From the NCBI GenBank assembly GCA_944350485.1, contig CALVPE010000074.1:13989-77988 (forward strand): a stretch of DNA of 64,000 nt, written 5' to 3'. This stretch comes from an uncultured Bacilli bacterium (GTDB lineage Bacteria; Bacillota_I; Bacilli_A; RF39; UBA660). Made by a program: the position numbers and the translations under genes. The first letter of the stretch is position 1. Every line of letters begins with the position of its first letter. The notes under the pieces were generated by a model. The model was not told the origin of the DNA. It did no database searches and saw only the letters and a program-made list of their open reading frames with translations. Positions 10,512-52,684 of the stretch are shown here, one piece after another.

Positions 10512-10954
10512 ATTTTTAATATTTTTAAATTTCTTTCCCTATATCTTGAATGTTGATTTATATTTTTCTTATTAAATTTTTTTAAATATTGTTTTTTAAA
10601 TTTATTAAAAGCTTCATTAAAATATTTATTTTTATTTGTTTTAAAGTCAAAAGTTTCTTCAAATTTTATTCCAAGTTTTTTATATTTATATTTTTTATAA
10701 TAAAAAGCATCTAAATTTTTTTTATATTCTTTATTTTCTTCTCTCCATTTTTTTGCATATTTAGATTGACATTCTTTACATTTTGTTCTATGGCCCACTT
10801 CTATTTTTATTTTTCCATTTTCTGTTATAAATTTTTTTGTTTCTTTATGAAATTCACTTAATCTTTTCCATTGTTTACAAACTCTACATTGTTGTAAAAG
10901 AATACCATGTTCTCTTTTTCTAAAAGAGTTTTTATATTCATAAATATTTTCCAT
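10493..10954 (-). CDS. hypothetical basic protein with two CxxC pairs (zinc-ribbon-like)
   Basis: CRVCKQ...CKECQ. Overlaps the helicase start. Confidence 0.4.
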   Translation of the reverse strand: MENIYEYKNSFRKREHGILLQQCRVCKQWKRLSEFHKETKKFITENGKIKIEVGHRTKCKECQSKYAKKWREENKEYKKNLDAFYYKKYKYKKLGIKFEETFDFKTNKNKYFNEAFNKFKKQYLKKFNKKNINQHSRYRERNLKILKIWKEKK

Positions 10955-21532: not shown

Positions 21533-22153
21533 ATGACAATATTAATAAAAAATAGATTTAATAATTTATCAATGGATAATTTAATAATTAATGATTATAA
21601 TAAAAATTTAATTACATATTTAAAAGATTATAAAAAAAATATTGAAGAAAAAATAAATAATTACGAAAATATTATTTTAACTGGAAGTGTTGGAAGTGGA
21701 AAAACTTTTATTATGAGAAGTTTTTTTAATGATATCCAAAAAATTAAAATTAAAAGACAAAAAAGTTTTTATTATAATCAAATAGAAGAAGAAGATTATA
21801 TTTCTTCTATGTATGTAAATATGTATGATTTAATAAATGAATTAAGAAAAGAATATAAAGGTGAACATGTTGATAGTTTATTATTTACATGTGATTTGTT
21901 ATTTATTGATGAAATAGGTATACAATTTTGTACAGATGCAGAAAGACAAATACTTTTTAAATTAATAAATTATAGATATGAAAATTTTAAACCAATATTT
22001 TTAATTTCAAATCATCCTTTAAGGTCCACCAATGAAATTAAAGGTCTTTATTATATTTTAGGTGATAGAATAATGGATAGAATTTGTGATTGTAATTGTA
22101 AAGTATTTTGTTTTAATAATATAGAATCAATGAGAAAAAAATGTTTGAAATAA
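21533..22153 (+). CDS. DnaC/IstB-like helicase loader ATPase
   Basis: Walker A GSVGSGKT and Walker B LLFIDEIG. Confidence 0.7.
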   Translation: MTILIKNRFNNLSMDNLIINDYNKNLITYLKDYKKNIEEKINNYENIILTGSVGSGKTFIMRSFFNDIQKIKIKRQKSFYYNQIEEEDYISSMYVNMYDLINELRKEYKGEHVDSLLFTCDLLFIDEIGIQFCTDAERQILFKLINYRYENFKPIFLISNHPLRSTNEIKGLYYILGDRIMDRICDCNCKVFCFNNIESMRKKCLK

Positions 22154-24180
22154 AATTATATGATATTGAATGTGAACAAGTATTATTAGGATGTTTAATA
22201 TTAAATTCTGAAACATATTTTAAAATAAATTCAATAATAAAAAGTGAGTATTTTTTTGAAAGTGCTCATAAAGATATTTTTATTTTACTAAAAAATTTTT
22301 ATGAAAATGATAAGGTACAAGATTTAAAATCATTATCAGGCGAAATAAAAAATATTTTAAGAAAACATCATTATACAGATGATTATTTAAAATGCTTATT
22401 AAATATGGGAGCAGGAATAATTGATGTAGAAAGTTATTGTAATATAATTAAAAATTTTTATTTAAAAAGACAATTGAAAGATTTAGAAGAAAAAATTGAA
22501 TTAGAAATTAAAAAAAATACTAAAGCAGAAGATATATATGATAAAATAAAAAACAATTTAGAAAATATAGGAGAACAATCAAAAGAAGAACAATATACTT
22601 TTGATAATGCTATGGATATATGTGCTAAAAGAATATTGGATATAGAAAATACTATTAATAATAAAAATGAACCTGATAATATTATAAAAACTAATATTAT
22701 AGATTTTGATAGAAAGTTAGGTGGAATTTTTAGAAAAAAATTATTTGTTTTAGCTGGAAGGAGTTCGTCGGGAAAAGCGTTACCATTAGATACTAAAATA
22801 TTAACTAATAAAGGATGGATAAAAAATAAAAATATTAAAATAGGTGATAAAGTTATTGATCCATTTGGTAAAGAAGTTGTAGTTAATGGTGTTTTTCCAC
22901 AAGGAAGAAGAAGATGTTATAAAATATTTTTTGAAGATAGAATTATAGAAGCGGATAAAAATCATTTATGGGAGATATTTTTTGAAGATGAAATAGAACC
23001 AAAAATATTAAGCACTAAACAAATATATAAAATATTAAAAGATAAAAAAAATAATAAAAAGTTATGTATAAGGCTTTTTTGTGGAAAATATGGGCTTAAT
23101 AATAATAAAAGTATTTTATTTAAAAAATATGAAGCTAGAAAAAATTTTTTATTTAATTATCTTAATAAAAGAAAATATGAAATAAAAAGTTATAAAAAAT
23201 CTTTAATATTGCAACAATTAGCTTTTAGTTTAGGCATGAAGTGCCATATTATTTTTGATAAAATAAATAAAATATATAAAATAGATATTTATAAAAATAT
23301 TTCTAAAAAATTATATATTAATAAAATAGAAAAATCAAATTTTAAACATACACAATGTATTAGTGTTGATAGTAATGAACATCTCTATGTAATTCAAGAC
23401 TATATTGTTACTCATAATACTACACTTTCTTTACAAATTGCATTAAATGTAGCTAAACAAAATAAAAATGTTTTATTTTTTTCACAAGAAATGTGTTCTG
23501 AAGAGCAGGGAGATAAAATATTATCTAATGTTGCACAAATTAATTCTTCAAATATAAGAAAATCAGATGTTACTTATGAACAAATACAAAAAATGAAAAA
23601 TAATATGGAAGAAATAAATAAATTACCATTATATTTTAATGAAAAGTTAGGTATTAGTGGTGATTATGTAAGAAATGTTATTAAAAATTTTGAAAAAAAA
23701 GTCGGTAAAATTGATTTAGTTATTATAGATCACTTGCAAATAATGAGAACAGAAGATAATCAAAATAATAGGGTATTAGCTCTTGATAAATTATCTATGG
23801 ATTGTAAAAATATAGCAAAAGAATTTGATTGTGGCATGATATTGTTAAGTCAATTATCAAGAAAAACAGAAGAAAGAGATGATCCACGACCACAATTATC
23901 CGATTTAAGAGAAAGTGGTGGTATTGAACAAAATGCGGATGTTGTAGTTTTTATTTATCGGGAAGCTTATTATACAGAAAGAAAACTAAATGGGTTATTA
24001 GAAACAGATCCAAGATTCACTAGTTTATCTAATCAATTGAAAACTCAAAAAAATCAAGCAGATTTAATAATACAAAAAGATAGGGGGGGAAATTTAGGAA
24101 ATATAAAATTATATTTTGTCCCTGAATTTTCTTATTTTTCCGATATATATACTAAATATCTAGAAGATGCAAAAAAATAA
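22141..24180 (+). CDS. dnaB: Replicative DNA helicase DnaB interrupted by an intein in the P-loop
   Basis: N-terminal ECEQVLLGCLILNSE. P-loop LAGRSSSGK|...|TTLSLQIALNVA split by a 214-aa insert. C-terminal ...IIDHLQIM...ESGGIEQNADVVVFIYRE. Confidence 0.85.
   Translation: MFEIKLYDIECEQVLLGCLILNSETYFKINSIIKSEYFFESAHKDIFILLKNFYENDKVQDLKSLSGEIKNILRKHHYTDDYLKCLLNMGAGIIDVESYCNIIKNFYLKRQLKDLEEKIELEIKKNTKAEDIYDKIKNNLENIGEQSKEEQYTFDNAMDICAKRILDIENTINNKNEPDNIIKTNIIDFDRKLGGIFRKKLFVLAGRSSSGKALPLDTKILTNKGWIKNKNIKIGDKVIDPFGKEVVVNGVFPQGRRRCYKIFFEDRIIEADKNHLWEIFFEDEIEPKILSTKQIYKILKDKKNNKKLCIRLFCGKYGLNNNKSILFKKYEARKNFLFNYLNKRKYEIKSYKKSLILQQLAFSLGMKCHIIFDKINKIYKIDIYKNISKKLYINKIEKSNFKHTQCISVDSNEHLYVIQDYIVTHNTTLSLQIALNVAKQNKNVLFFSQEMCSEEQGDKILSNVAQINSSNIRKSDVTYEQIQKMKNNMEEINKLPLYFNEKLGISGDYVRNVIKNFEKKVGKIDLVIIDHLQIMRTEDNQNNRVLALDKLSMDCKNIAKEFDCGMILLSQLSRKTEERDDPRPQLSDLRESGGIEQNADVVVFIYREAYYTERKLNGLLETDPRFTSLSNQLKTQKNQADLIIQKDRGGNLGNIKLYFVPEFSYFSDIYTKYLEDAKK
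22777..23418 (+). other. Intein (214 aa) in the DnaB Walker A motif. It has a non-nucleophilic Ala1, ends ...VTHN, and the +1 residue is Thr
   Basis: Starts ALPLDTKILTNKGW (block A), ends ...DYIVTHN|TT. Excision gives GRSSSGKTTLSLQ. Ala at position 1 plus Cys in block F (TQCISVD) suggests a class 2/3-type intein. Its size leaves room for only a reduced endonuclease domain. Confidence 0.75.
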
Positions 24181-33156: not shown

Positions 33157-34545
33157 TTATTCCCATGTTATTTTTAAAATTGGAAATTCATTGTATTGTA
33201 ATTCTATATCATCTTCTGGATTATTTAAAATATAATTATCTTCCAAAATATTACCATTTGAATCTATAACCTGATCTAACCAATATTGTATAGTTTTTTT
33301 AAATATTTTTTTTCTAAAATAACATACATTTTGATCATTCTGCATTTCTTTTATAGTTTCTTCAACTGCTTTTTTCATATCTAATGTATTGGCTTCATTT
33401 AATAAAGAAACATTAATTTCTATTTCCCTTAGTACTGGATTAACAACATTAACTTGATCTTCTGTTGGATTAATTTTATAAATAGTATCAACTAAATATT
33501 GTTTAATATCTTGTAATTCTGTATTTGATAGAGTTGTAAAATCATTTTTTATCATATATATAGTAGTATATCCACTAACAATAGTTCCATCAGTTTTTTC
33601 TGCTCTTGGAATAAAAATTAATGCATTAGTATATTTTCCATATTGAAATTCCCTTATTTTTAATATTATATTACTTCTATTCCATCCTTGTGGTATTCCT
33701 CTAATTCTTTCTAAAATTCTTTTTCTATAATCTTCCATTTCTTCTTCATCTTTTCCACCATTAATTCCATCATAGTATACATAGCATGTACTATCAACAC
33801 CTTGTTGTTCCACATTCATTTTTAAAGTTGATCCAGCAATTAAATTTTGATTTGATCCTGTATCACTTGATTCAACTAAAACAGAAGCGCTAATTATATC
33901 AACAAAAATATCACCAGTAGCAGTATTTGGTGCATCAGTGTCAATATCATAAGTAAAGCTATTTGTACTAATAGTAGTTATTTTAAAATTTTCTTTATTA
34001 TATTGTTCTTCATTAGCTCCATATATTCTGCTAATAGGCATGCCACTAGCTGTTTTAAAATCTTGTGATAATACCACTGTTGCTTTTCCTTGTGAACTTG
34101 TTAAACTTTTAACTTGTATAGTACTTTTTGATATAACAACAGTTTCTTGTGTTAAATAATTATTTCCATTTGAAGATATTTGCGTTCCTTGCATTATTGA
34201 TCCACCTTCTATTCCAGTAAATATTATATAACCAGTAGCTGGTGTTGATGTATAATGATAAACCCCCCAAGTATTTCCATGAAATTCTTTTAAGGGAGTA
34301 TAATCAGCTGTTTGTGGAAAAAATTGTTTTAACAAAAATTCTGAATTAATATCATTATTGTAAGAAGCATTTGTTAACGTATTTAAAAAGGCATATAATA
34401 CTTTACCTTGAACTGTATTATAATCTATTGTTACAATTTCATTTGTAGAAGTATTTATTATTTTTTGTTCTTCCAATGACTGTTTAAAAAAATTTAAATT
34501 ACTTTGTAATAATTCTTCATAACTTTTTGACATATTATTTACCAC
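33157..34545 (-). CDS. baseplate J-like protein (P2 gpJ / Mu gp47 family)
   Basis: Size and position between the W/gp46-like and gpI-like genes. Confidence 0.5.
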   Translation of the reverse strand: MVNNMSKSYEELLQSNLNFFKQSLEEQKIINTSTNEIVTIDYNTVQGKVLYAFLNTLTNASYNNDINSEFLLKQFFPQTADYTPLKEFHGNTWGVYHYTSTPATGYIIFTGIEGGSIMQGTQISSNGNNYLTQETVVISKSTIQVKSLTSSQGKATVVLSQDFKTASGMPISRIYGANEEQYNKENFKITTISTNSFTYDIDTDAPNTATGDIFVDIISASVLVESSDTGSNQNLIAGSTLKMNVEQQGVDSTCYVYYDGINGGKDEEEMEDYRKRILERIRGIPQGWNRSNIILKIREFQYGKYTNALIFIPRAEKTDGTIVSGYTTIYMIKNDFTTLSNTELQDIKQYLVDTIYKINPTEDQVNVVNPVLREIEINVSLLNEANTLDMKKAVEETIKEMQNDQNVCYFRKKIFKKTIQYWLDQVIDSNGNILEDNYILNNPEDDIELQYNEFPILKITWE

Positions 34546-35579: not shown

Positions 35580-37322
35580 TTATACCTTTAATAATTCCAC
35601 CTTTTTTGTCCCGTCTTTATAATAAATTATTTTAGTATTTTTTGTAAAATCTATTTTTTTAATTTTAGCTTCCTCTTTTTTCTTTTCTAATATTTTTTTA
35701 TTTTCTTCTTTTTTAAAATCTTCTGTATTTAATTCACTAGCATTATAAGATAATGGTGGTATTAATGTCAAATTAGTATAAGCTCCACTATCACTATCAT
35801 AATTTATTTCTAATTCTCCAACAATTAAAGATAAATTATTTATACCTTGTGCCGGTGAATTAACTATTACCTTTCTGTTTATTTCCCAAAATTTATCTTG
35901 TTTTTCTTCACAATAATTTACTTTCGCAAAATTCATATCTATTGTATATCCTATAACTTTTGCTTGTATTCTATAACTTTCAGCTCTCATAGCATTTATT
36001 TCATAATTTAATCTCCTACTAGCAGCATATTCTGTCAAATTTTCTTCAACAAAAATATTTTTTATATTTCCCATTAAATTTTGTCCTAAGTATTTACTTT
36101 TGTTAAAATATAAGTCTTTTTGTCTCATGGTTTCTATTGATTCTTTATCATATATACCCTGTCCATTAGCAGCTAAAAATTGTCCTTCTTTATTTCTAAG
36201 AATGTAAACAGAATATTCATTTGATCCGGAATATTCTTCCGTTAATTCTTCAAGGCAATTACTGTTATCTGTTCCATCATTTGTTACATAACCAGTTAAT
36301 TCCATAAAGGCATATGTGAACCATTTTGTATTTCTAGAAGCAGTATATAAAAATGGCATTTTAGTATATGACCAATTACCATAAGCTGGTATACTTTGTT
36401 TTAAATTATATTGCAATTTTAATGGATTATAAATATCTGCATCAATTCCAGGCCTATATAATAATAAAACATAAACAATAGTTTCTTTTGTATTATTTGG
36501 TTTTGGATAAATATATTGATCTACTAAATATTCTTTTATATCAGAATATAAACCTATACATTTTACAAAAACATTTATATTCTTTGTTATACTTTTTATA
36601 TAATCAAAAACCGTTTGGTCATAAGAACTTGTTCTTTTATTTTTTTTAGAAAAAACAGATATTTTTGTATTATATAAGTTAAATGGATCATATAAAACAA
36701 ATTGTATATATTTTTTTTCTAAATTACTTTTATATAATTGTCCATTTAAAATTATATTAAATATTTTATCTGATGTATTTTGTAATTCTTTTTTTATTTT
36801 CATTGTTTTACTATTATCAAAATATTTATAGGTATATTGTTTATTTTCACCTATTATTGTTTCTTTTCTAGTTTTTATTATAGGGGATAAATTTCTATTT
36901 TCTTTTATGCTTTCTATTGTTGGTTGATATGTACAAACAAAATTTTTTTCACAAGTATTTTTAATAAAATCCCCTAAACAATCACCACCCGTATATTCTT
37001 CTGATTCATATATATCGCTATTACATAATTGCCAACCATGTGTAGAACATTCACAAGTTATATAATTATTTTTTACTCTTCTGTTTAATAATATTCCACT
37101 AACATAGAAACAATCATTTACATAAACATCTATCTTTAATCCTAAAAAATTTGGTATATATGTTTCATATCCATTTTCATTAACAATAGGAATTGTAAAA
37201 GAAAAACTATCAGTTACTGTTGATATATTTTTTTTAATTGAAATACTTTTAGGATATAATATTTCATCAAATATTTTTATAAAAATTTTTCCTGCATATA
37301 AACTAGTAGCTTCTTTTTTCAT
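35580..37322 (-). CDS. baseplate hub / tail protein (Mu gp44 or P2 gpD-like position)
   Basis: Position between the DNA-circulation-like and V-like genes. Confidence 0.4.
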   Translation of the reverse strand: MKKEATSLYAGKIFIKIFDEILYPKSISIKKNISTVTDSFSFTIPIVNENGYETYIPNFLGLKIDVYVNDCFYVSGILLNRRVKNNYITCECSTHGWQLCNSDIYESEEYTGGDCLGDFIKNTCEKNFVCTYQPTIESIKENRNLSPIIKTRKETIIGENKQYTYKYFDNSKTMKIKKELQNTSDKIFNIILNGQLYKSNLEKKYIQFVLYDPFNLYNTKISVFSKKNKRTSSYDQTVFDYIKSITKNINVFVKCIGLYSDIKEYLVDQYIYPKPNNTKETIVYVLLLYRPGIDADIYNPLKLQYNLKQSIPAYGNWSYTKMPFLYTASRNTKWFTYAFMELTGYVTNDGTDNSNCLEELTEEYSGSNEYSVYILRNKEGQFLAANGQGIYDKESIETMRQKDLYFNKSKYLGQNLMGNIKNIFVEENLTEYAASRRLNYEINAMRAESYRIQAKVIGYTIDMNFAKVNYCEEKQDKFWEINRKVIVNSPAQGINNLSLIVGELEINYDSDSGAYTNLTLIPPLSYNASELNTEDFKKEENKKILEKKKEEAKIKKIDFTKNTKIIYYKDGTKKVELLKV

Positions 37323-38659
37323 ATATCAAATATTTTTATTTTACCACTAACATTTAAAATATCATCTATAATATTATTATTCAACAATAAAATATCTTCA
37401 AATAAATCTTCATTACCATAATAATCATAAACTATTTTATGAAGCGTTTGTGGTGTTTTAATTTCTAAATATTTTATATTATTTTTAGCAACAGCTTCTT
37501 CTAACAAATATTGTTTTGTTTCATTAAAACAAGAAAACAATAAATCTTTTATTTTTATACTTATACTATCATTATAATATAAATTATTGTACATTTCATT
37601 TATTTGTTTGTATAAACTTTCTATTTCTTCATCTGTATTAAAATCCACTTCTGTTGATAATTCCATAATATTTGTAAAATATACAATATTTGAACTATCT
37701 TTTATTTCTTTTTCCATTATTGCTTCTTGTAATTTATTTATATTATAATATTCTACTAATTTATCATTATTACTAGTTGAAAAGTCAAACATTGTATATA
37801 AAAATTTAATAGTATTTTTTGTATCATTAAAATAACTATAAATACCATCGCAAATTTCTTCTATTGTATCTACTATTTTACCTGGTGTTTTTGCAATATT
37901 GACTAATTGTCCATTTATATATTTTAACATGTTTAATATTCTTAAAGGTTCTTGTAACGTTGATACAAAAAAATTAATATTATCTTGTACTGTATTTAAT
38001 ATATTCTGAACTTTTGTTACATATGATTTAACTAAATTAGAATATTTTCTAAAACTTTTATAAATATTTTTTATATTTTCATTTGTAGTTGATAACAAAC
38101 TAGCATTTTTAGTATTATTAATTTTTTGCATAAATGAATTTGGTAATTCACCATTTTGTATTTCTGTTTTTAATTCATTTAAAATTTGTGATTTTAAATT
38201 TTTTATTTTATTTACATCAGCTTTTTGTTCTGTTTTGTAAGAATATTGTAAAGCGACAAATTCTAATGATTCTGTATTTAATCCTAATGAAAAATAACCT
38301 TTATTTGCACTTCTTAAAACACCATAAAAAATATCGCCATCAGGAAATTCTATTTTAACATTTTTACATTTTTCAGTATTTATAATATTTTCTAAAAAAT
38401 TTTTTTGTTCTAAAAAACTATTTTTTAATTCTTCTTTTGAACTATTCTCACCACTCTTATATATACCACCATATTTTATGGTTATTGAAAAAGTTGTTTC
38501 ATTAGGTCCCAAATATTGTATAACCGGTCTATATAATCCATTAATATTATCAATTACTAATCTTTTTCCTCTACTATTAGATATATCATCCCAGAGAAAT
38601 TCTCTATCATTTATTTTTATATAATTTTTATAATATTTATAAACCGCTGTATTTTCCAT
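37319..38659 (-). CDS. tail protein in the position of Mu gp43 (DNA circulation protein)
   Basis: Directly follows the tape measure gene. Size 446 aa. Confidence 0.35.
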   Translation of the reverse strand: MENTAVYKYYKNYIKINDREFLWDDISNSRGKRLVIDNINGLYRPVIQYLGPNETTFSITIKYGGIYKSGENSSKEELKNSFLEQKNFLENIINTEKCKNVKIEFPDGDIFYGVLRSANKGYFSLGLNTESLEFVALQYSYKTEQKADVNKIKNLKSQILNELKTEIQNGELPNSFMQKINNTKNASLLSTTNENIKNIYKSFRKYSNLVKSYVTKVQNILNTVQDNINFFVSTLQEPLRILNMLKYINGQLVNIAKTPGKIVDTIEEICDGIYSYFNDTKNTIKFLYTMFDFSTSNNDKLVEYYNINKLQEAIMEKEIKDSSNIVYFTNIMELSTEVDFNTDEEIESLYKQINEMYNNLYYNDSISIKIKDLLFSCFNETKQYLLEEAVAKNNIKYLEIKTPQTLHKIVYDYYGNEDLFEDILLLNNNIIDDILNVSGKIKIFDI

Positions 38660-38666
38660 ATATTTC

Positions 38667-41162
38667 CTAAATATTACTACCTAAATTTAATCTACTTCTT
38701 ACAGATACATCCAAATTACCACTATTAATATTTTGTGATTTAACCGGAAAATCTGCTACAACATCAACTCTTGCATAATTATTTTGCATTGATGATGAAT
38801 TTAAAACTAATGCTCTTGACATAACTTCTCTTTCCCTATTTTCTCTTTGTTTTTGTTTATTTTTATCATCAAAATATTTAAAAATTTTAAATGATAAAAG
38901 TGCTAAAATAATTAAACCAATTACATAAGGATTTAAAATTAAACTTAACATACTAGGTAATAATGATGTTATAGCTTTAGTAGTTCCACCAATTATTCCT
39001 GAAGTTTTATATCCTTTTCTATAATTTATAAGTGAAATTTTTTCCATTTTATTAAATGTCTTTTTCATATTATCAAAAGATTTTTTAAAATTATCCTTTG
39101 AAAAAAAAGACGAAAAAGAAAAAGCATTAGATATTATTTCTCCACTTATATCTCTATTAATTTTTTTATGTAAAATAGCTCCTGTACCTAATAATCCAAC
39201 CTTTTCTAGATTATTCATATGTCCTATTGAAGCAACTCTCTTAAATAAAAATAAAGTTTTTAAACCACCTAATATATTAGCAATTCCACTGATAGTAAAG
39301 AGAGAAGATAAAATTAATTGTAATGTATTAGAAAAATTTAATCCCTCTGAATTTATACTATCTAATGCATTCTCTAAATTTGAATAAGCTATTGATAATG
39401 TTAATACAGATGAACCTAATCCTATAAAACTTTGTTTTAAAAATTCATTTCTTAATGACATCATATCTAAAATTTTTCCTTCTTGGAAGGCTTTTTGCAT
39501 TGATGTTAAATATATCGTCATATCCTTTAATGATTTACTAGAAGTAAAAGTAATAGATTTAAAAGCTGCAAAACCAACTACTGATAAATTAATTAAAGGC
39601 ATTAATTTTGTAAATAGTTGTACTAATGATGTTAATGTTGATATACCAGATGTTAATGAATTTAAAATTGGATTAAATTCTGTTAAACCACCAGTTAATG
39701 ATAATTTAAAATCTTGTATAGCATTATTTAATCTAGATATATCTGCCCCTAAACTATAAATATATAAATTTTCTTTATTTCTAGGATCTAATTTAGATTC
39801 TTCAAAAACTGTTTTAAAAAATTCAGCTGTTGATATATTATTACTTCTTAAATAATTTTGTAAATCATCAAAATTCTTTAATGTATCATTAGCCATTTTA
39901 TTATAGCCTTTTAAAGCATATTGTAAAACTGGTGCTCTTAATGGGGTGTTACCTAATTGCCTATTAAATTCTTCTGCCGATAATGAACCTTTTTCAAGCA
40001 TTTGATAAAAAGCCCTTATAGCTCCTTGTTGTTCATCAGCTGTTGCACCAACTAATGTAAACATTTTCATCATTTCTTTATATGATGATAATGTATCATT
40101 AAATGTTATAGTACCTTTTGGAACAGCATTAGCTAATTTAGAAAATCCCTTTTCCATTTCTCCATATTCAACACCAAGTTCATTTGCATAGTTTCTTAAA
40201 TCTTTCATTAAGTTTTTAGCTTCAACTATATTTTGTGAAGATGAATTTTGAGAAAATTCTTCAAAATTTCCTAAAACTCTACCAAGCATAATTGAAGTTG
40301 ATTCAAATTCTTTTCTAACACTTACTATATCTTTTACAAAAGTAAATAAACTTAATGCTCCTAAATAAAGTCCAAAAGTTTTTACTTTTTCCATGAAATC
40401 GTCAAAAAAATCACCAAAATTTATTAATGGCTTTGAATATTGTTCAATATCTTTAATATATGTATTATCTATTATTTTTTTTAATTTATTATCTTTTGTA
40501 GTTAATTTTGAATATTCCCTTTGTTGTTCTTTTATTTCATTTTTTAAATTTTTTATTTTATCCAAAAATCTTTTATTTAAAATTTTATCTTCAAGTCTAC
40601 CAAGTTTTTGTATCTCTTTTTGTTGTTTTACTATTTCATTAGTTTGTTTCTTTAATTCTTTTATTTTTTCAATAAATCTTTTATCTAAAATATTACTTTC
40701 TAATATTCTAATTTTTCCTATTTGTTCATATTGTTTTTTATATTCAATAGTTTGCTCTCTTAAATCTTTTATTTTTTGTTTATTACCATCAACATCATAT
40801 ACTTTTTTTAATAATTCAGCAGAAGCATATGATTTTAAAGGAAATTTTTTTGATAATATTTTTTCTTGTTGTTCAGGTAATAAATTTGCAAATTCTTTTG
40901 TGGAAATAAAATTTGACATTTTTAAAAATTTATTACTATAAGTTCTAGCCATAAATTCTGGATCAGTAAAATTTTTCAAAAATGTGGCCATACCTTTTTT
41001 GCCAAATCTTCCATTATAAGAAGATAGTTCACCAAAAAATCTATTTTTATAATTTTTTATATTTAGATTTTTTAGTTGTTTTTGTAAAGTAGAAAAATTT
41101 TTAATTAATTTTTCTAATAATTTTGTATCAACACCAAATGTAACATCAACAGAACTAGCCAT
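38667..41162 (-). CDS. tail tape measure protein
   Basis: 831 aa. Coiled-coil N-terminal half and hydrophobic segments in the C-terminal half. Follows the chaperone pair. Confidence 0.65.
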   Translation of the reverse strand: MASSVDVTFGVDTKLLEKLIKNFSTLQKQLKNLNIKNYKNRFFGELSSYNGRFGKKGMATFLKNFTDPEFMARTYSNKFLKMSNFISTKEFANLLPEQQEKILSKKFPLKSYASAELLKKVYDVDGNKQKIKDLREQTIEYKKQYEQIGKIRILESNILDKRFIEKIKELKKQTNEIVKQQKEIQKLGRLEDKILNKRFLDKIKNLKNEIKEQQREYSKLTTKDNKLKKIIDNTYIKDIEQYSKPLINFGDFFDDFMEKVKTFGLYLGALSLFTFVKDIVSVRKEFESTSIMLGRVLGNFEEFSQNSSSQNIVEAKNLMKDLRNYANELGVEYGEMEKGFSKLANAVPKGTITFNDTLSSYKEMMKMFTLVGATADEQQGAIRAFYQMLEKGSLSAEEFNRQLGNTPLRAPVLQYALKGYNKMANDTLKNFDDLQNYLRSNNISTAEFFKTVFEESKLDPRNKENLYIYSLGADISRLNNAIQDFKLSLTGGLTEFNPILNSLTSGISTLTSLVQLFTKLMPLINLSVVGFAAFKSITFTSSKSLKDMTIYLTSMQKAFQEGKILDMMSLRNEFLKQSFIGLGSSVLTLSIAYSNLENALDSINSEGLNFSNTLQLILSSLFTISGIANILGGLKTLFLFKRVASIGHMNNLEKVGLLGTGAILHKKINRDISGEIISNAFSFSSFFSKDNFKKSFDNMKKTFNKMEKISLINYRKGYKTSGIIGGTTKAITSLLPSMLSLILNPYVIGLIILALLSFKIFKYFDDKNKQKQRENREREVMSRALVLNSSSMQNNYARVDVVADFPVKSQNINSGNLDVSVRSRLNLGSNI

Positions 41163-41163
41163 T

Positions 41164-41933
41164 TTATTTTATTTTATTATTTTTTTTCATATTATTTAAT
41201 GTGGATTCAATTTCATCAGAAATATCATTAGCAACTTTATTTTCTAAAAGTAATTCATCTATTGTTAAAGTATTTAGATATTCTGCTGTCATACCACCTT
41301 CATAAAATTTTATTATCTTGTTTCTAGTTTTAATAATTTCCTCTCTTACATATTCTAGTGAAAAAGACAAATTAATATTTTTTATATCACATTTTGTCTC
41401 TTTCACTTTTTCAATTATTTTTCTATCTTCCTCGTTGATGAAGAGTTGGATACTTGAAAAAAAAATGCAAAAATGATTTTGTATAAATCAAAAATATCAC
41501 CACTTTCTTCAAGTTGTTTTTTTATCATATTACCTGAAATATTTTTTTCCATTTCTTCGTCAACAAATAAAAATTTATCAAAATAAACTGGACATTTTTC
41601 TAATAAGTCCTTTTCAAAATCATCATAACCACCCATAACACATCCATATACTAGACTATTAGCAGTTTGTAAAATATTTTCATCATTATCAAATATATTA
41701 TCTGCTTTTTCTTGTATTTCTTCATCATTTTCATCAACAATAATATTATCAGAAATAACCTTTTGTCCTAACACTAAATATTTTTGTGTCTTATGAATAA
41801 TTGCAGAAAACAAACCAATATTTTTTCTAATTAAATCTTCAACAGTAGGTTTTTTAATATAAATATAGTCAGTTTCTACTAATTCATTATTTTTATCTTG
41901 ATAACTTATTTTTTCCGATAGTTTAAGTTTCAT
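41164..41933 (-). CDS. tail assembly chaperone pair (G-like 41415..41933; G-T-like fusion product made by -1 frameshift into 41164..41406)
   Basis: Two short ORFs between tube and tape measure. A slippery T9 run on the minus strand (plus 41457-41465) sits at the end of the upstream ORF. The -1 frame continues directly into the downstream ORF frame without a stop. Confidence 0.6.
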
Positions 41934-41954: not shown

Positions 41955-42380
41955 TTAAATTAATAAAAATTCAACTGGATCTCCCTTAAATACTAGTCTC
42001 ATATCGTTTCCAGAATTTAATGAAACACCAGTAATAAAATCTGCTACACAATTAGATACTTTTGCACAAACCCCTAATTCAGCATCAATAATTGTCAATG
42101 TAAAAGAAGGTCCTTGTGCTAATTCTGTACAGTATCCTAATGTATACATATCAGGCGACATAGGTACAGATATTTCAGACTGTGTATTATCATAGGTAAT
42201 AAAAGTCACTATACCACCATCCTTCAATGATATTGTATCATTTGTACCATAACCTAAATTTTCAAATGTATAATCACCATTTGTCAAATTGGTTTTTAAA
42301 AGTTCTCCATTTATATACACATGAGGCTTTGTATCAGATTTTTTTCCTTGAACACCATTAATTTCAAAAATTCCTGCCAT
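41955..42380 (-). CDS. tail tube protein
   Basis: 141 aa immediately downstream of the sheath gene. Confidence 0.6.
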   Translation of the reverse strand: MAGIFEINGVQGKKSDTKPHVYINGELLKTNLTNGDYTFENLGYGTNDTISLKDGGIVTFITYDNTQSEISVPMSPDMYTLGYCTELAQGPSFTLTIIDAELGVCAKVSNCVADFITGVSLNSGNDMRLVFKGDPVEFLLI

Positions 42381-42389
42381 TTCTTCTCC

Positions 42390-43934
42390 TTAACTTATAT
42401 AACCAAATTTATAATTCATAAAAATTTCTCTTAATTGAGAATAAACTACAGTCTCTATTAAAGTACTTGTAATTTTACCATCAGCATAATCTTCAACAGT
42501 ATTATTTTTTAAGGCATTTAAGAATGTAGTTAAACCTTCTGGTTCTACAAACTTATATGATCTTTTAGTTTCTGAATCTGTTTCTTGACCAGAACAAACC
42601 TTATATCCTGTCTGACAATCAATTATAAAATTAGCCTTTGTAATTCCACTTTCCATTCTTTTATGTGCCATAGTTCTTTTTTGTCTATTAAATAAATAGC
42701 TTAAAAAACTAGAAACACATTCATCAAAAGCCATCCAATGGAAATTTTTATCTAAATTACCTTCACTATCTTTTGTGTATGTAGTTACTAAATCACCAAT
42801 AACTAATTTATTTTCTTTATTAATTGTAAATACAGAAACACCTGAATCATTAAGTAATTGAACTTCATCTCCATCTTCATTTTCTAACCATTCTTCACCT
42901 TCTTCTATTGTATATTTTTCTAAAATAGTTTCAGCTAATGGTAATGATACATTATTAGGATCACCCAAAGGAATTAGTGAATTTATTTTTCCAAAATTTG
43001 TTCCTTCTGTATAGCATAAATTTAATACACCAGCTATTAAAGAAGATAAATAACATGGTTGAATAATTATATGACCACAATTATAACCATCTTTATTAAT
43101 TTTCTTTAATCCCAATATTGTTTGTGAACTCTCATTTAGTCCTTCAGCTTGTTCAATTAAATTTTCTAATGTATCAACTTTGGTTTGTATCATTCTACCC
43201 CTTTTATCAACATTAGAATAATTTTGCCATTTCTTTAATTCATTAATAAAATTAGTAGTATCTATACCATCTTCAAAAATATATAATCTATTTTTTTCTT
43301 TTTTACTATTAATATAGTTAATTAATTCATCTGCAGTAGCACTATTTGTTCCAGCATTAATAGTAATTGAAGATGTTATACCTTCACCAATTATTTTTGC
43401 TTTAACTGGTGTACTTGCACCACATGAACCATCAACTCTTGAAGTAAATGTTACCTTTGTGTCTGAAGCAGAATAGTTAGTAACATCAAATGGTATATCT
43501 TCCCATTTTTTTGCTTCTGTTATAATAGCTTCCACTATTTGTGTAGGTGTAACACTACTTTCAAAATTTAAAGAAAAACTATGTATTTTATCAAAAAATG
43601 AAAAATCTACTTGAATAGCACTTGTAGCAGTTCCTTCAAATTCAACTTCAATGGTTGTTGCTGTTGCTTCTTCTGGCGTAGGTAAAACATCAACAGAAAC
43701 TTGGCATTCATATTCACTATCTGCCTCCAAATAAGCTAAGTACATACCATATAAAAAACTTCTTTCACCAGCTACATCACTAACTTGTTTTTTAGTTTTT
43801 ACAGATGGTAAATGAACTATTTCTTGTAAATTTTTACTTTTTTCAGCAGTACCAATTAATTTAACACTATAATCGGCATTTTGCTGACCTTGTTTTGTAG
43901 TAGTATAATTAATTTTTGCCATTATTTTCCCCAA
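42390..43934 (-). CDS. contractile tail sheath protein
   Basis: 514 aa. Sheath-like size, directly upstream of the tube, chaperones and tape measure. Confidence 0.6.
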   Translation of the reverse strand: MGKIMAKINYTTTKQGQQNADYSVKLIGTAEKSKNLQEIVHLPSVKTKKQVSDVAGERSFLYGMYLAYLEADSEYECQVSVDVLPTPEEATATTIEVEFEGTATSAIQVDFSFFDKIHSFSLNFESSVTPTQIVEAIITEAKKWEDIPFDVTNYSASDTKVTFTSRVDGSCGASTPVKAKIIGEGITSSITINAGTNSATADELINYINSKKEKNRLYIFEDGIDTTNFINELKKWQNYSNVDKRGRMIQTKVDTLENLIEQAEGLNESSQTILGLKKINKDGYNCGHIIIQPCYLSSLIAGVLNLCYTEGTNFGKINSLIPLGDPNNVSLPLAETILEKYTIEEGEEWLENEDGDEVQLLNDSGVSVFTINKENKLVIGDLVTTYTKDSEGNLDKNFHWMAFDECVSSFLSYLFNRQKRTMAHKRMESGITKANFIIDCQTGYKVCSGQETDSETKRSYKFVEPEGLTTFLNALKNNTVEDYADGKITSTLIETVVYSQLREIFMNYKFGYIS

Positions 43935-47587: not shown

Positions 47588-48892
47588 TTATTCCTTTTTA
47601 TTTGTACTTTCAAAATTTTTAGAAATTGCTTCATTTAATGGGGCAGTAGACATACCAACTCTAACTTTATCACCACCTTCAACTGCATCCAAATCATTAA
47701 TACTTCTAACTTCATTAGTTGTATAAGCTTCTGTCTTTTTAGCCTTTTCCATAACATCTAAAATATCTTTCATTAATAAATTAATATTAGACTTATTATA
47801 TGTGAGTTTATATCTTCCAGTTTTATCATATTTTGGCATTAAAAAACTATCAAGTTTATCATATAATAAGTTTGTAAAAGGTATAATTGTATTAATTATA
47901 AAGGCTTTTCTTGCTTCTTCTGCTGAATTATATGTTTTTGCACTTATAACACCACATTCTTCTGCTGGAATTCCCATAACCATACATATCATTTGAATAG
48001 ATAATTCAATTAATTTTGAAAAATCCATATCTTTTATACTGCTTGATAGATTTTGTACTTTTATACCACCTTCTAATAAAATAGGTCTACCTGCATTTTC
48101 TGAACCACTATATCTACTATTTAATTGTTCATTTAATATAGTTCTTTGTTCATCAGTTAAAATACCATCATAACCATCTTTTGGTTCAACAATAAAAGCT
48201 ATACTAGGTCTAGCTCCATTTTGTAAAAATGATAAATTAAACTTATTTGCTATATCTATATGATTAATAGCATCAGAAGCGGATTCTAATGGACTTGTTC
48301 CATTATCTTTAAAATTATCACTTGTGGGATTATAAAAAGTTTGTTTAAAAAAATAACTTTTTTCATCATAGTATGGAATATTTTTAATTGTTTTATTTTC
48401 TTGTCCCATTGTAACATTATAATCTATTACATTTCCCTTTTCATCATTATTAGATACATTTACATTACCTGGCATAATTCTTTTTAATGATAAAATATTA
48501 TTACCTTTCATTTCAGCATACAAATAATAAACTCCATAAATAAAAAGATCATTTACTAAATCTCTAATTATTTCTTTCCAAACTTGTTCTCTATTAGGTC
48601 TTTTTAAAATTTCATTTAATAATAATTTTGTATCTCTCTTATGTTCTAGTGTATCAATAATCATTGGCTCTAAACTACAAACAGCATTAGAAAATCTATC
48701 AATAACTGTTCTTAAAATAGCATTTTTTGTATATTTATCTGATAAATCAACAGTTACCACATTTAAAGAATTCCATCTAAAAATTTTTAAAGCTCCATTA
48801 TTATATGTACTTATTTCTTCTAGTTTATTATTATTACTATTAGGAATAAAACTTTTTATATTGAAAATGTTTTGAGATTTATTAAAAATCAT
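47588..48892 (-). CDS. portal protein
   Basis: 434 aa. Portal-like conserved core (...GIPAEECGVISAKTYNSAEEARKAFIINTIIPF...). Follows the terminase. Confidence 0.7.
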   Translation of the reverse strand: MIFNKSQNIFNIKSFIPNSNNNKLEEISTYNNGALKIFRWNSLNVVTVDLSDKYTKNAILRTVIDRFSNAVCSLEPMIIDTLEHKRDTKLLLNEILKRPNREQVWKEIIRDLVNDLFIYGVYYLYAEMKGNNILSLKRIMPGNVNVSNNDEKGNVIDYNVTMGQENKTIKNIPYYDEKSYFFKQTFYNPTSDNFKDNGTSPLESASDAINHIDIANKFNLSFLQNGARPSIAFIVEPKDGYDGILTDEQRTILNEQLNSRYSGSENAGRPILLEGGIKVQNLSSSIKDMDFSKLIELSIQMICMVMGIPAEECGVISAKTYNSAEEARKAFIINTIIPFTNLLYDKLDSFLMPKYDKTGRYKLTYNKSNINLLMKDILDVMEKAKKTEAYTTNEVRSINDLDAVEGGDKVRVGMSTAPLNEAISKNFESTNKKE

Positions 48893-48894
48893 TT

Positions 48895-49122
48895 TTATTT
48901 TTTACTTATTATTAAAACAGAAATTATAAAAAATATAAACATTAGAGAATATTTTAAAATATCAAAATATGTACTTGCATTTAATAAAAAAAATGGTGTA
49001 TAAATCATACATGCAACACAAATAATAATACATATATTGCTAATATTTTCTAATATTTTTATTATAATATTTTTTAAAAAAAGATAAAATTTATTTAAAA
49101 TCATTGATATTTTTTTAAACAT
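48895..49122 (-). CDS. small hydrophobic protein between terminase and portal
   Basis: Two TM-like segments. Confidence 0.3.
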   Translation of the reverse strand: MFKKISMILNKFYLFLKNIIIKILENISNICIIICVACMIYTPFFLLNASTYFDILKYSLMFIFFIISVLIISKK

Positions 49123-51688
49123 AACTTATATTTATTCTCCTTTGTTTAGTTTTATTAAAATAATTTCTAGCCCAATTAATTACTTGTGATAAAGAATCAA
49201 CTGCATCATCATGTACACTATCATTTTTGCTAGGAAATACATTTAATTCTCTCTCTATTTCTTTTATAACATATATTTGTTTTTTGTCAAGTCTAGTAAT
49301 TTTATTATATTCTTTTGGAAAAAATACTCTACCATTATTTATTTCAAGGGAACATGATTTTGCTCTATCTTCTTTTGATAATTTTGGAGAAAAACAAATA
49401 ACAATTTTATTTTTTCTAGGATCTTTTTTTTCTAATAAACCACCATATATTAATATTTCAAGTTCATTAATAATTTCATAACCACTACTTTTTTCTTCAA
49501 CTATTATAAAGTCTGGTTGATATTCAATATACCAATCAATAACTCTTCTAACAAACAATGGTGTTTTTTCTTGTGTTAAACTAGCTTCTAAAAGATATGA
49601 TTGTAATTCTTTTCTTTTTGTAATATTATTTGTATAAGTATTAAATCCCCATAATTGCATTGATTGATAATCATTTTCTCCATTAGATGAATCTATTGAA
49701 ATAACTCTTTTTTCAAAAATAATATCTTTTATATTATCATTAGTATATTTATTAATACAATTTATATTAAATATTTTTGTATCTTCTTCTTCACATTTTT
49801 GAAACATTTGCCATTGAAAATCAATATCATTGTTTATTAAGTTTCTATGAAGTTCAAATCTATTATCATCAAATTTATCTGGAAATATAAAATCTCCATT
49901 TTTGACAAACCATTTTCTATAAGGACTAATAAAATATTTTCCAGATAATAATTTATTATTTTTTGCATCATAATATTCTTCTACTTGATTTTCTATTTTT
50001 GCAGGTATTTCTATATGTTTCCATTTGGAACTGTTAGGAAGTCTTAATAAATATCCAGTTGTGTCATTTTCTGCTATTCTTTGCATACAAATGATTAATG
50101 GAGCTTCGGAACCTATTATACCCCTATCCCTTGTAATACAACCACTTACAATTTCATTCATTTTTGTTAAATAAGTATCTTTTTCTGTTTTAAATCTAGT
50201 ATAATCATTTGGATCATCAAAAATTGTAAAATCAGAATCGGTACCTGTTATATTACCTTGCATTGTTTTTATTGTAATACTACCACCACCTTCTATTTGT
50301 TCTCCATAATTAAATTTTTCTAAGAAAAATACTTCTTCTGTATTTTTTTGATTTTTATCTATTTTAACTTGTGGAAATAATTGTTGATAATAATCAGAAT
50401 TTAATATTTCTTTAATATGTCTAACATATTTATTTCTAACGGTATCAGCACCGGAAATAATTAAAAATCTAGTATGTGGAAAAAATCCAATATAAAGACA
50501 TACAAAAGATATTAAACTATTGGTATTATGGCAAACTGTATAATTATCAAGTAAATATAAATGATTACCATCTAATTCAAAACCATAATATTTATCATAT
50601 CCCATGCTTTCAATATTAAATTTTTGTAAAGATAAATATATAGGATTATCTTTAAAATGATTTTTTTTATTTTTTAATGATATTTTTTCTATATTACCAT
50701 GAATATATATTTTATAAAATTGTTTATTTTTAATAAATTTTGTATACTTTTTTGTATAAAATCCTAAACTTCTTGATAAATCAATTATAAAATTTGTTTT
50801 TTCTAAATTATTGCAAATTATTTCAATTTCATTATTTGATTTTATAAATCCCCTTCCATCAACTATTCCGGATAATAGTTTTAATCTTATATCTTCATTA
50901 TTAAAAATATAATCATTTAAAAATTCTTTATTTTTTTCTATTTTATCTAATATTTTAAATTTCTTATTATTAAAAAATTTATTATTTAGTTTATTTAATT
51001 CTATTGTATGTAATGTTTTATTTTTATTTGATAAATATAAACCAACAAAATAAGGATTTATATCTACTTTTTTATATTTATAAAGTATCTTATTTTTTAC
51101 CATTCTATGATTTTTTTTAAAATCTTCATCTTGTTTTAAATAGTCATCAACAGTGATTTTAATAAAATTTTTATCATTTATATTATATAAATATAAAATA
51201 TGTTCTTTATTACAAGTAAATTGTGTATCATCATCCATAGTAATTTTATACATATTAGAATAACTACTTCCTAATGATATGACATTTCTAGGAGTACTAT
51301 CATCTCCCATTATTTTATCTCCTATTACTATGTCTTCAACTTTTTTTAAAGTTCCATCATACATTCTTATTAATGTACCTTTACCATGACATTTACCATG
51401 TCCAGGTGGAATATTAATAATTAAAAATTTATTTCTTTTTTCTAAAATTTCTTTTAAAAAATCAAAATAATACTTAAAATACCAATTAAATTTAAAATTT
51501 ACTTGCGGTTCACATATTCTACAACATATTTCATGAAACAGAACCATATTATTTATTAACCAGTAATAATCTGGATAAAAATTACCATTTTCATCAACTT
51601 CTAATGTTATATTATCAGTTATTCTTTTAGAAAAAACTGTTTTATAATATTCTAATGTATTTTTTTTATTTTCTAACTCAGAAGTCAT
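49115..51688 (-). CDS. terminase large subunit interrupted by an intein in the ATPase P-loop
   Basis: NIPPGHGK|...|TNSLISF reconstitutes the Walker A motif PPGHGKT after removal of a 289-aa insert. The C-terminal nuclease-like region includes FIIVEEKSSG and DDAVDSLSQ. Confidence 0.8.
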   Translation of the reverse strand: MTSELENKKNTLEYYKTVFSKRITDNITLEVDENGNFYPDYYWLINNMVLFHEICCRICEPQVNFKFNWYFKYYFDFLKEILEKRNKFLIINIPPGHGKCHGKGTLIRMYDGTLKKVEDIVIGDKIMGDDSTPRNVISLGSSYSNMYKITMDDDTQFTCNKEHILYLYNINDKNFIKITVDDYLKQDEDFKKNHRMVKNKILYKYKKVDINPYFVGLYLSNKNKTLHTIELNKLNNKFFNNKKFKILDKIEKNKEFLNDYIFNNEDIRLKLLSGIVDGRGFIKSNNEIEIICNNLEKTNFIIDLSRSLGFYTKKYTKFIKNKQFYKIYIHGNIEKISLKNKKNHFKDNPIYLSLQKFNIESMGYDKYYGFELDGNHLYLLDNYTVCHNTNSLISFVCLYIGFFPHTRFLIISGADTVRNKYVRHIKEILNSDYYQQLFPQVKIDKNQKNTEEVFFLEKFNYGEQIEGGGSITIKTMQGNITGTDSDFTIFDDPNDYTRFKTEKDTYLTKMNEIVSGCITRDRGIIGSEAPLIICMQRIAENDTTGYLLRLPNSSKWKHIEIPAKIENQVEEYYDAKNNKLLSGKYFISPYRKWFVKNGDFIFPDKFDDNRFELHRNLINNDIDFQWQMFQKCEEEDTKIFNINCINKYTNDNIKDIIFEKRVISIDSSNGENDYQSMQLWGFNTYTNNITKRKELQSYLLEASLTQEKTPLFVRRVIDWYIEYQPDFIIVEEKSSGYEIINELEILIYGGLLEKKDPRKNKIVICFSPKLSKEDRAKSCSLEINNGRVFFPKEYNKITRLDKKQIYVIKEIERELNVFPSKNDSVHDDAVDSLSQVINWARNYFNKTKQRRINISYV
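50525..51391 (-). other. Intein (289 aa) with LAGLIDADG homing-endonuclease domain in the terminase Walker A motif
   Basis: Cys1 at CHGKGTLIRMYDGTL (block A). Block B T..H in FTCNKEH. Two LAGLIDADG-like motifs (YFVGLYLSNKNK and LSGIVDGRGF). Block F YGFELDGNHLYLL. Terminal TVCHN with +1 Thr. Confidence 0.8.
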
Positions 51689-51811
51689 TGTTAAAAATTT
51701 TTAAACTAAATATAGTTTATAAATATTTTTTTAAAAGTCAACTATCAAAAAAAATACTTGACAAAAATAAAAAAATTTTAGAAAATTAAAAAAAATCTAT
51801 AAAAACAAAAA

Positions 51812-52165
51812 ATGGAAGAAAACTTAACAAGAGAAGAATTAATAGATTTTGAAAGAACTACATTTTTTTTTAAATATTTAGTGCTTTTTTTTATGTGTGA
51901 AGCATTGAAAGATTCAAGAAAGATTAAAAGGGGACACACATTATCAAGAGAAAGAGAAAGAAGTATAAAAGATACACAGGAATGGTTTCAAAAAGATAAT
52001 AAATTATTACAAGAATATTGTAAATTAGCTATGATAGATATAGACGATTTATTTTTTGAATTTGAAAGAATAAAATTAGAAAAAAATAATAAAAATACTC
52101 CTTATTTAAAACCAAAATTAATAATAAAAAATAAAAAAAAATTGACTTTAAAAAAAAATAAATAA
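51812..52165 (+). CDS. hypothetical basic protein
   Basis: ORF only. Confidence 0.3.
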   Translation: MEENLTREELIDFERTTFFFKYLVLFFMCEALKDSRKIKRGHTLSRERERSIKDTQEWFQKDNKLLQEYCKLAMIDIDDLFFEFERIKLEKNNKNTPYLKPKLIIKNKKKLTLKKNK

Positions 52166-52198
52166 TAATTAAATTATTATTAATAACTTTTAAAAAAA

Positions 52199-52684
52199 AT
52201 GGATTTAGAAAAAATATTTAAATATAAAAAAGAAATTTTAGAAGATTTAAAAGAAAAAATTAATGATATAGAAGATAATGTATATTTAACTGATGATTCT
52301 TCTTTATTGGTAATTTTTGGAGAACAAAAAAAGCCTACTCAATTTGATATTGAAATTAAATTTCATAAATTTGATGATTTAGATCATTTTAATATTGTTA
52401 ATCCAATAAATAAAAAAATATTAGAAAAAATTGATAAGGATTCTTTAAATGATATTACAAAAGAATTAGAAAATATTGAAAAAAAATATAATGATTTAAT
52501 AAATAAAGCAAAAAATAAAGTTGAAAAAGAAAAATTGCAAAATAAAAAAATGTCAGAAAAGAATAATATATCACTTCCTAAAACTAAAAAATTTGAAAAT
52601 ATGGACGAGTTTGAATTATTGAAAGCTCTACAAGATTATTCTAAAAAAATTAATAATATGTTAAATTTTAGGTTTAAAAAATAA
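52199..52684 (+). CDS. hypothetical coiled-coil protein
   Basis: ORF only. Confidence 0.3.
   Translation: MDLEKIFKYKKEILEDLKEKINDIEDNVYLTDDSSLLVIFGEQKKPTQFDIEIKFHKFDDLDHFNIVNPINKKILEKIDKDSLNDITKELENIEKKYNDLINKAKNKVEKEKLQNKKMSEKNNISLPKTKKFENMDEFELLKALQDYSKKINNMLNFRFKK

Follow-up and report, generated by a model that had tools for sequence, protein, structure and literature searches.

A stretch of 64,000 nucleotides (nt) from an uncultured Bacilli bacterium (RF39; UBA660; assembly GCA_944350485.1, contig CALVPE010000074.1, positions 13,989-77,988 of the forward strand), hereafter the window, has a GC content of 22% and carries on its minus strand, directly between a tail tube gene and a tape measure gene, two overlapping open reading frames (ORFs) with a run of nine Ts inside the upstream one. 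The upstream frame, ORF-A, encodes a protein of 172 amino acids (aa); the downstream one, ORF-B, listed as an 80-aa ORF, lies in the -1 frame relative to ORF-A. We analyzed this pair as a case of -1 recoding, in which a 256-aa fusion protein would be produced along with the ORF-A product. Throughout, position 1 is the first letter of the window. The features that define the pair are the following.

41933-41415, minus strand: ORF-A, the 0-frame product of 172 aa, a putative short tail assembly chaperone of the gpG/gpE type, assigned by position and architecture
41465-41457, minus strand: the slippery run T9 (U9 in the messenger RNA (mRNA); A9 on the plus strand), located inside ORF-A, where the 0 frame reads TTT TTT TTT
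41456-41415, minus strand: the dual-coding overlap of 14 codons, from the slip site to the 0-frame stop
41487-41164, minus strand: the -1 frame ORF, a candidate T/E'-like extension, of which the 80-aa ORF-B is the distal part

Read directly, ORF-A around the run is ...ATC ATT TTT GCA TTT TTT TTT CAA GTA TCC...; the in-phase heptamer U_UUU_UUU occupies 41463-41457 (minus strand), and the 0-frame TAA is found at 41417-41415, 14 codons past the run. In the -1 frame, a stop occupies 41490-41488; from 41487, the frame is open until the stop at 41166-41164. Through the run, it reads FFSSIQLFINEEDRKIIEKVKETKCDIKN... and continues through the GTG (41406) where the listed ORF-B begins. The frame arithmetic indicates a -1 shift (on the minus strand, codons start at 2 mod 3 in ORF-A vs 0 mod 3 in ORF-B), and such a shift on the last TTT codon would give join(41933..41457, 41457..41164), that is, a protein of 256 aa that consists of the 159 N-terminal residues common with ORF-A and a 97-residue extension, with the predicted junction peptide ...IIFAFFFSSIQLFINEEDR. 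The original prediction for this locus, a programmed -1 ribosomal frameshift in a tail assembly chaperone pair, was accurate with respect to the run, the stop-free -1 frame and its continuation, residue for residue, into the 80-aa ORF; its statement that the 172-aa ORF ends just after the run requires amendment, given that the run is inside the ORF, 14 codons ahead of the TAA.

The open -1 frame downstream of the run is far beyond chance. Among the 179 A/T runs of at least 7 nt that lie within ORFs of at least 100 aa in the 64-kb window, the median length of the open -1 frame is 4 codons, and at the T9 site it is 97; such frames are typically short because off-frame stops are so frequent in a window with this GC content. 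At random in-gene positions, the 99th percentile is about 37 codons. Just three cases exceed 97 codons, each 1-4 codons ahead of a stop where the next gene overlaps. One of these three, at 10497-10493, was rejected as a second frameshift on reading, being an ordinary ATGA start/stop overlap. At that site, an A8 run at the end of a 153-aa ORF (10493-10954, minus strand; run region 10493-10511) is followed by a 724-codon open -1 frame; the ATG of a helicase gene overlaps the TGA of the 153-aa ORF, an ordinary case of translational coupling.

Conservation of the run and of both coding parts

The comparison set comprises 18 sequences from seven lineages, including the window, taken from ENA, Logan and JGI assemblies of independent samples. 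The relatives of ORF-A were identified by a word-indexed search, which yielded three clusters at 48-55% identity, by an exhaustive profile search, which added one more remote homologue (P0006, E = 1.5e-8), and by using the more conserved tube protein as the query, which retrieved two further lineages; altogether, ORF-A homologues were found in only six related lineages. Single-sequence and alignment searches of viral, genome and metagenome contigs produced zero confirmed relatives, and a tblastn search of the fusion and the sheath protein against 50,697 phage records produced zero matches.

All related loci share the synteny. Each of the 18 sequences has a run of exactly nine Ts at the corresponding position, and an in-phase X_XXY_YYZ heptamer precedes the 0-frame stop by a short distance in all seven lineages; in six of them, the stop itself occupies a constant position, 14 codons past the run. 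In every lineage, the -1 frame becomes open no more than 4-10 codons ahead of the run and remains so for 95-100 codons, and the deduced fusion proteins align gap-free across the junction. Divergence has proceeded in parallel in the A and B parts, with 29-58% protein identity to the window, and both parts, together with the slip site, have been conserved despite this divergence. The YEGG motif in ORF-B is retained as far as the lineage with 29% identity (L010), and the box AGGAAGATAGA (41432-41422), within the overlap, is near-invariant across the six closer lineages.

Both parts are under coding constraint, as judged from the substitution pattern. Counted separately for codon positions 1, 2 and 3, the pairwise differences number 88, 53 and 148 upstream of the run (0 frame) and 91, 48 and 137 in the distal part of ORF-B (-1 frame), a periodicity typical of coding sequence; across the 13-codon overlap, read in the -1 frame, the numbers are 32, 27 and 26, a flat profile that would be expected of a doubly constrained stretch. 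Whatever the route, we consider it very probable that the fusion protein is made by -1 recoding at the T9 run.

A further observation concerns codon choice in the overlap. An invariant Phe six codons into the -1 extension (41440-41438 in the window, minus strand) is encoded by TTC in the six closer lineages (the window, L001, L003, L005, L013 and L019), and TTT accounts for 73-95% of the Phe codons in the genomes that carry this invariant TTC. The C of this codon doubles as the second base of a Ser codon that is invariant in the 0 frame, and it takes part in a 4-bp CUUC/GAAG pairing; the retention of TTC could reflect dual coding or RNA structure.

Possible routes of the frameshift and other readings of the split gene

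In the mechanism that we propose, most ribosomes would read ORF-A to its TAA and produce the 172-aa protein, and a minority would enter the -1 frame at U9 and produce the 256-aa fusion, by tandem -1 slippage of two phenylalanine transfer RNAs (tRNA-Phe) on the in-phase U_UUU_UUU, without a dedicated RNA stimulator, which we take to be the likeliest single route; ORF-B would never be made alone. If the two proteins work as in lambda, the residues common to both would bind to the tape measure protein and the extension would bring in tube subunits, and a constant rate of slippage would determine how much of each is made relative to the other. That the ribosome is the main route appears to us an evenly balanced proposition. 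The best surviving alternative retains the same gene pair and the same fusion, with the shift effected mainly by RNA polymerase (RNAP): realignment on the 9-bp rU:dA hybrid would insert one U, and the U10 fraction of the mRNAs would be translated normally into the A-B fusion. We rate this possibility somewhat below even. Mass spectrometry cannot separate the two routes because both give an identical protein (A-F-F-F-S...), with the same junction peptide, and the phase of the heptamer was rejected as a discriminator because any T9 holds an in-phase X_XXY_YYZ in every register.

Several lines of evidence weigh against the ribosomal route and favor slippage by RNAP. First, no conserved downstream stimulatory structure was found in the seven lineages, and RNAalifold detected no covariation. 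The best hairpin in the overlap of the window has an energy of -4.2 kcal/mol (z = +0.34 vs shuffles), and five of the seven lineages (L003, L013, L019, L010 and the window) fold like shuffles (z from -0.5 to +0.75); L001 and L005 alone have hairpins (z about -2.3 and -2.7, respectively). The downstream stem-loop or pseudoknot, a check proposed along with the original prediction, is accordingly rejected as a conserved stimulator, and no upstream Shine-Dalgarno (SD)-like stimulator is visible in the sequence either. The lambda slip site is not known to need a stimulator and, because the present site resembles it in this respect, the missing stimulator is not evidence against the ribosome.

Second, the length of the run appears to be maintained independently of its register. 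In five lineages, the run is in register 0 (NNN TTT TTT TTT C), and the preceding codon is GCA, TGC, GGC, GGA or TAC, that is, always ends with A or C; TGC, GGC and TAC are minority codons in their own genomes. In the other two, the run is in register 2 (NNT TTT TTT TT(A/C)), having been shifted by one base through paired substitutions such that it still comprises nine Ts. The wobble base before the run is T only where this is required for nine; the naive joint probability of the pattern is 0.0011 if the base is free and the lineages are independent, and because the lineages are in fact related, the figure of 0.001 overstates the evidence. The pattern therefore points to selection on run length rather than on a phased heptamer. 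A run fixed at nine Ts in two registers, preceded by rare C-ending codons, is not predicted by a ribosomal model based on the heptamer alone, and the consistent avoidance of T10 is not explained by that model. A need for the in-phase U_UUU_UUU would be sufficient to account for the wobble T in the two register-2 lineages.

Third, runs of this length are exceptional in the window. Coding runs include 231 of A6, 106 of A7, 49 of A8, 6 of T8 and at most 2 of A9, the latter located in a dubious ORF; runs of at least 9 nt number six in the 64 kb, and there are none of at least 10. Two of the six are intergenic, three lie in one dubious ORF of the region 51688-52199, and one is the T9 in ORF-A, the sole run of at least 9 nt within a trustworthy gene. 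A7, A8, T7 and T8 are common in coding sequence, so bare heptamers are tolerated, which argues that unstimulated ribosomal slippage is low, and runs of at least 9 nt look actively avoided in this genome. The avoidance of T10 and of runs of at least 9 nt could, however, also reflect instability during DNA replication. The counts of A/T runs drop smoothly from 6 to 8 nt (by a factor of about 0.45 per step) and then collapse at 9. The divergent region 51688-52199 holds 9-nt A/T runs at 51863-51871, 52133-52141 and 52150-52158 and a low-complexity 117-aa ORF (51812-52165) that is probably no gene; this region may be promoter- or origin-like.

Finally, there are precedents for transcriptional slippage at runs of exactly this kind. 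Shigella mxiE uses a T9 run by transcriptional slippage. According to a review, runs of 9 As or Ts cause highly efficient slippage of bacterial RNAP in vivo, the RNA:DNA hybrid spans 9-10 bp, and Thermus dnaX uses such a 9-nt run productively (PMC5009743). On the other side, the literature searched holds no documented case of a tail chaperone pair made through transcriptional slippage, and the precedents at this gene position (lambda, P2, HK97-like) are ribosomal. Of the programmed ribosomal frameshift that had been predicted, the recoding component is upheld by the coding periodicity and by the lack of a start codon in three lineages described below; the ribosomal component is not established, given that the run is exactly nine Ts in every lineage and in two registers and that 9-nt A/T runs are the classical slippage motif of bacterial RNAP (PMC5009743).

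The other readings of the split gene fare much worse. It is very unlikely that ORF-B is an ordinary small gene in its own right, initiated at the GTG (41406) and overlapping ORF-A in this frame geometry by coincidence. Four of the seven lineages do have a GTG at this position, and gene callers predict an ORF of about 80 aa there; however, the GTG of the window shows no SD complementarity (dG +0.2, vs -5.6 for ORF-A and -9.2 for the tube gene), which alone is weak evidence because SD use is patchy in this genome, and the equivalent codon is GTT in L005, GTA in L019 and absent in L010. The -1 ORF offers no possible start before codon 45, 49 and 55, respectively, in these three lineages, by which point much of the conserved sequence has been passed. 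Furthermore, a conserved -1 peptide, F..(E/K)(E/D)DR..I..V, is encoded upstream of the GTG, where the frame remains open and conserved for 17 codons back to the run, and the -1 ORF opens only shortly before the run in every lineage. Because three lineages have no usable start and a conserved peptide precedes the GTG, ORF-B appears to be reachable only from ORF-A, as a -1 frame that is open back to the slippery site and is devoid of independent initiation.

Long homopolymers are contingency loci in many bacteria, and the T9 might be a DNA-level phase-variation switch in which replication slippage between T9 and T10 generates short-only and long-only subpopulations. This is highly improbable, considering that there is zero length polymorphism in the 18 sequences, six of which are microdiverse variants from a single lineage, distinguished by a nearby synonymous site (TTC/TTT GGA), and that lambda needs both products in one cell, at a fixed ratio (PMC5009743). 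Although homopolymers are error-prone in sequencing, it is scarcely credible that the split is a sequencing or assembly error, or else a frameshifted pseudogene in a decaying prophage, because the same T9 recurs across independent samples and assemblers in lineages that differ at about half of the residues, with coding periodicity in both parts and a 0-frame stop at a fixed place in six lineages.

The tail module and other genes of the window

The genes surrounding the pair encode the components of a contractile tail; together with the Baseplate J and portal genes, they are the following.

42390-43934, minus strand: tail sheath (phrog_165, E = 2.6e-22), at the same position in all related loci
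41955-42380, minus strand: tail tube, 141 aa, identified from an AlphaFold model and Foldseek, with no family match
38667-41162, minus strand: tape measure, 831 aa (PF20155 TMP_3, E = 2.8e-16; TIGR02675, E = 1.4e-9)
35580-38659, minus strand: two baseplate-hub-like genes (phrog_184, E = 5.3e-8; phrog_177, E = 7.4e-15; both annotated as baseplate hub)
33157-34545: Baseplate J
47588-48892: portal gene (PF04860)

The gene order is sheath, tube, ORF-A/ORF-B, tape measure and baseplate hub, and the predicted placement of the pair between the tube and the tape measure is borne out by the tube fold on one side and the TMP_3 match on the other, downstream of a sheath. The tube protein itself had zero matches in Pfam, PHROGs and NCBIfam; when its AlphaFold model (pLDDT 65) was compared to the PDB with Foldseek, almost all matches were contractile-tail tube or Hcp proteins, namely those of phage 812, Mu, diffocin, Sf14, PVC, AFP and Pam3 (E from 2.7e-4 to 1e-2, TM-scores 0.4-0.56). 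Within the set of sheath, tube, chaperone and tape measure, the sole family matches are one PHROG, for the sheath, and the TMP families, for the tape measure.

The sheath ORF as listed has a TTG start and encodes 514 aa, and its relatives are called at 510 aa, from which the true start would probably be the ATG four codons downstream, at 43922 (MAKINY...). The ATG of the tape measure gene is located 1 nt past the ORF-B stop (TAA A ATG; 41162-41166, minus strand) and has no SD (duplex dG +1.6); in the relatives L001, L003, L005, L013 and L019, this ATG overlaps the last codons of ORF-B (...AAT GGC... = ...A ATG GC...). Initiation of the tape measure may be coupled to the termination of frameshifted ribosomes, as the overlap of E' and T in P2 also suggests. 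The length of the tape measure protein varies among the lineages from 655 to 861 aa (L001, 6757-8724; L003, 6763-9000; L005, 2858-5059; and L013-L019); within the microdiverse L013-L018, tape measures of 802, 838 and 849 aa are encoded next to near-identical chaperone genes. This spread suggests rapid variation of tail length.

Other genes in the window include an 857-aa ORF (49115-51688, minus strand), just upstream of the portal gene, with a Hom_end-associated Hint domain (residues 100-387, E = 7.7e-18), probably an intein that interrupts a gene for packaging or structure, for instance that of the large terminase. In the replicative helicase of the DnaB type (22141-24180, plus strand), the N domain covers residues 6-104 and the C domain residues 425-667; the roughly 320 residues in between have no family match and could be an insertion or an intein. 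A 431-aa protein (1266-2561, minus strand) with TROVE and Ro60 vWA domains (E = 1e-9 and 8e-7, respectively) is a putative phage-encoded, Ro60-like RNA-binding protein. The gene for the HK97-type major capsid protein (14511-15863, PF05065) is located about 32 kb from the portal gene, and replication genes (DnaB and a DEAD/ResIII helicase) lie between or near the two; it seems that either the structural genes are in two separate blocks or the ends of a permuted genome lie within the window.

Proposed chaperone identification and comparison with known systems

ORF-A and the -1 ORF are best explained as the tail assembly chaperone pair of a contractile-tailed phage, the functional counterpart of P2 gpE/gpE+E' and of lambda gpG/gpGT, an assignment that follows from position and architecture. 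Two overlapping ORFs are found directly between the tube and tape measure genes, and the operon order (sheath, tube, E/E+E', T), with the tape measure start at the end of ORF-B, matches the P2 record. By its architecture, the pair shows every hallmark of the frameshifted tail-assembly-chaperone class (Xu et al. 2004) that sequence can reveal and, by homology, belongs to no described family. Because a sheath is present, the tail is contractile and P2 gpE/gpE+E' is a closer precedent than lambda G/GT; the G/GT-like character originally proposed holds for the architecture across the comparison set, and the searches revealed no similarity in sequence or fold to lambda G/T, P2 E/E' or any other chaperone family.

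The results of the family and fold comparisons weigh against the chaperone assignment. In Pfam, PHROGs and NCBIfam, neither ORF-A nor ORF-B nor the fusion had a match (a sub-threshold match to ATG101 in the family scans is spurious), and a search of PDB sequences likewise gave nothing. The ORF-A model, which is of moderate quality (pLDDT 63), produced a single Foldseek match in PDB and BFVD, to an uncharacterised Caudovirales protein (E = 1.2e-3). An hmmscan of five family members, up to E = 10, detected no match to PF10109 or PF06528, the P2 gpE family, and an hhalign comparison of the ORF-A profile with a gpE profile, which is shallow because the homologue search gave close relatives only, yielded Prob 0.6% and E = 0.09 over a 24-column N-terminal stretch. 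The motifs aligned there, IYIKKPTVEDL in ORF-A and VTLMKPSAGTL in gpE, occupy the same N-terminal position in both proteins and are a lead, not a result. The identification is thus architectural, by gene position and the layout of the two frames. G-T type -1 frameshifting is widely conserved in long-tailed double-stranded DNA phages despite low sequence similarity (PMC5009743), and because position and frameshift rather than sequence are what is described as conserved, the missing homology agrees with membership in the class.

The pair is a real member of a well-known class in a very AT-rich, uncharacterised myophage lineage, and understanding of tail assembly is unchanged by it. For annotation, the 80-aa ORF-B should become the 3' part of a joined coding sequence for the 256-aa protein, and the pair anchors the order of sheath, tube, chaperone and tape measure where no curated family or annotated phage matches the tube or the chaperone. 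The only non-routine aspect is the strict conservation of nine Ts, which makes RNAP slippage a serious alternative to the ribosomal mechanism. If that route proved true, the pair would be the first of its class for which RNAP slippage was shown, and it would suggest that some conserved frameshifts annotated as translational in AT-rich phages are not translational. The distinction matters for frameshift predictors, which consider ribosomal signals only, and for how the product ratio is set.

Three known systems are relevant for comparison. In lambda, the gpG/gpGT pair (Levin 1993; Xu, Hendrix and Duda 2004) is likewise located directly upstream of the tape measure gene and is conserved by position and architecture, not by sequence (PMC5009743); the differences are a non-contractile tail, the slip site G_GGA_AAG, different proteins and a chaperone function that was demonstrated experimentally there and is proposed by analogy here. 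Thermus thermophilus dnaX and Shigella mxiE and spa share with the present locus exactly nine As or Ts within coding sequence that are kept in evolution and, in slippage of the dnaX type, one inserted mRNA nucleotide opens the other frame (PMC5009743); these are, however, cellular genes with proven heterogeneous mRNA, whereas here the case is made from the genes alone and in a context where the ribosomal shift is established.

The closest system is P2 gpE/gpE+E' (PF10109 + PF06528); Mu gp41-type chaperones belong to the same Pfam family as P2 gpE. P2-like phages frameshift 2-3 times more than lambda (PMC5009743). P2 differs from the present locus in that no sequence similarity is detectable between the proteins, that ORF-A, with 172 aa, is about twice as long as its 91-aa counterpart, that the extension has 97 residues rather than about 50, that the run consists of nine Ts vs six Ts plus G, and that the overlap spans 14 codons vs 6. 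What the two have in common is a contractile tail with the gene order FI-FII-E/E+E'-T, a -1 shift on a T-run (T_TTT_TTG in P2, with the annotated shift on GGT TTT TTG), a 0-frame stop a few codons past the slip site, an extension that has no independent start and an extension ORF whose end meets or overlaps the tape measure start, just as T overlaps the end of E' in P2.

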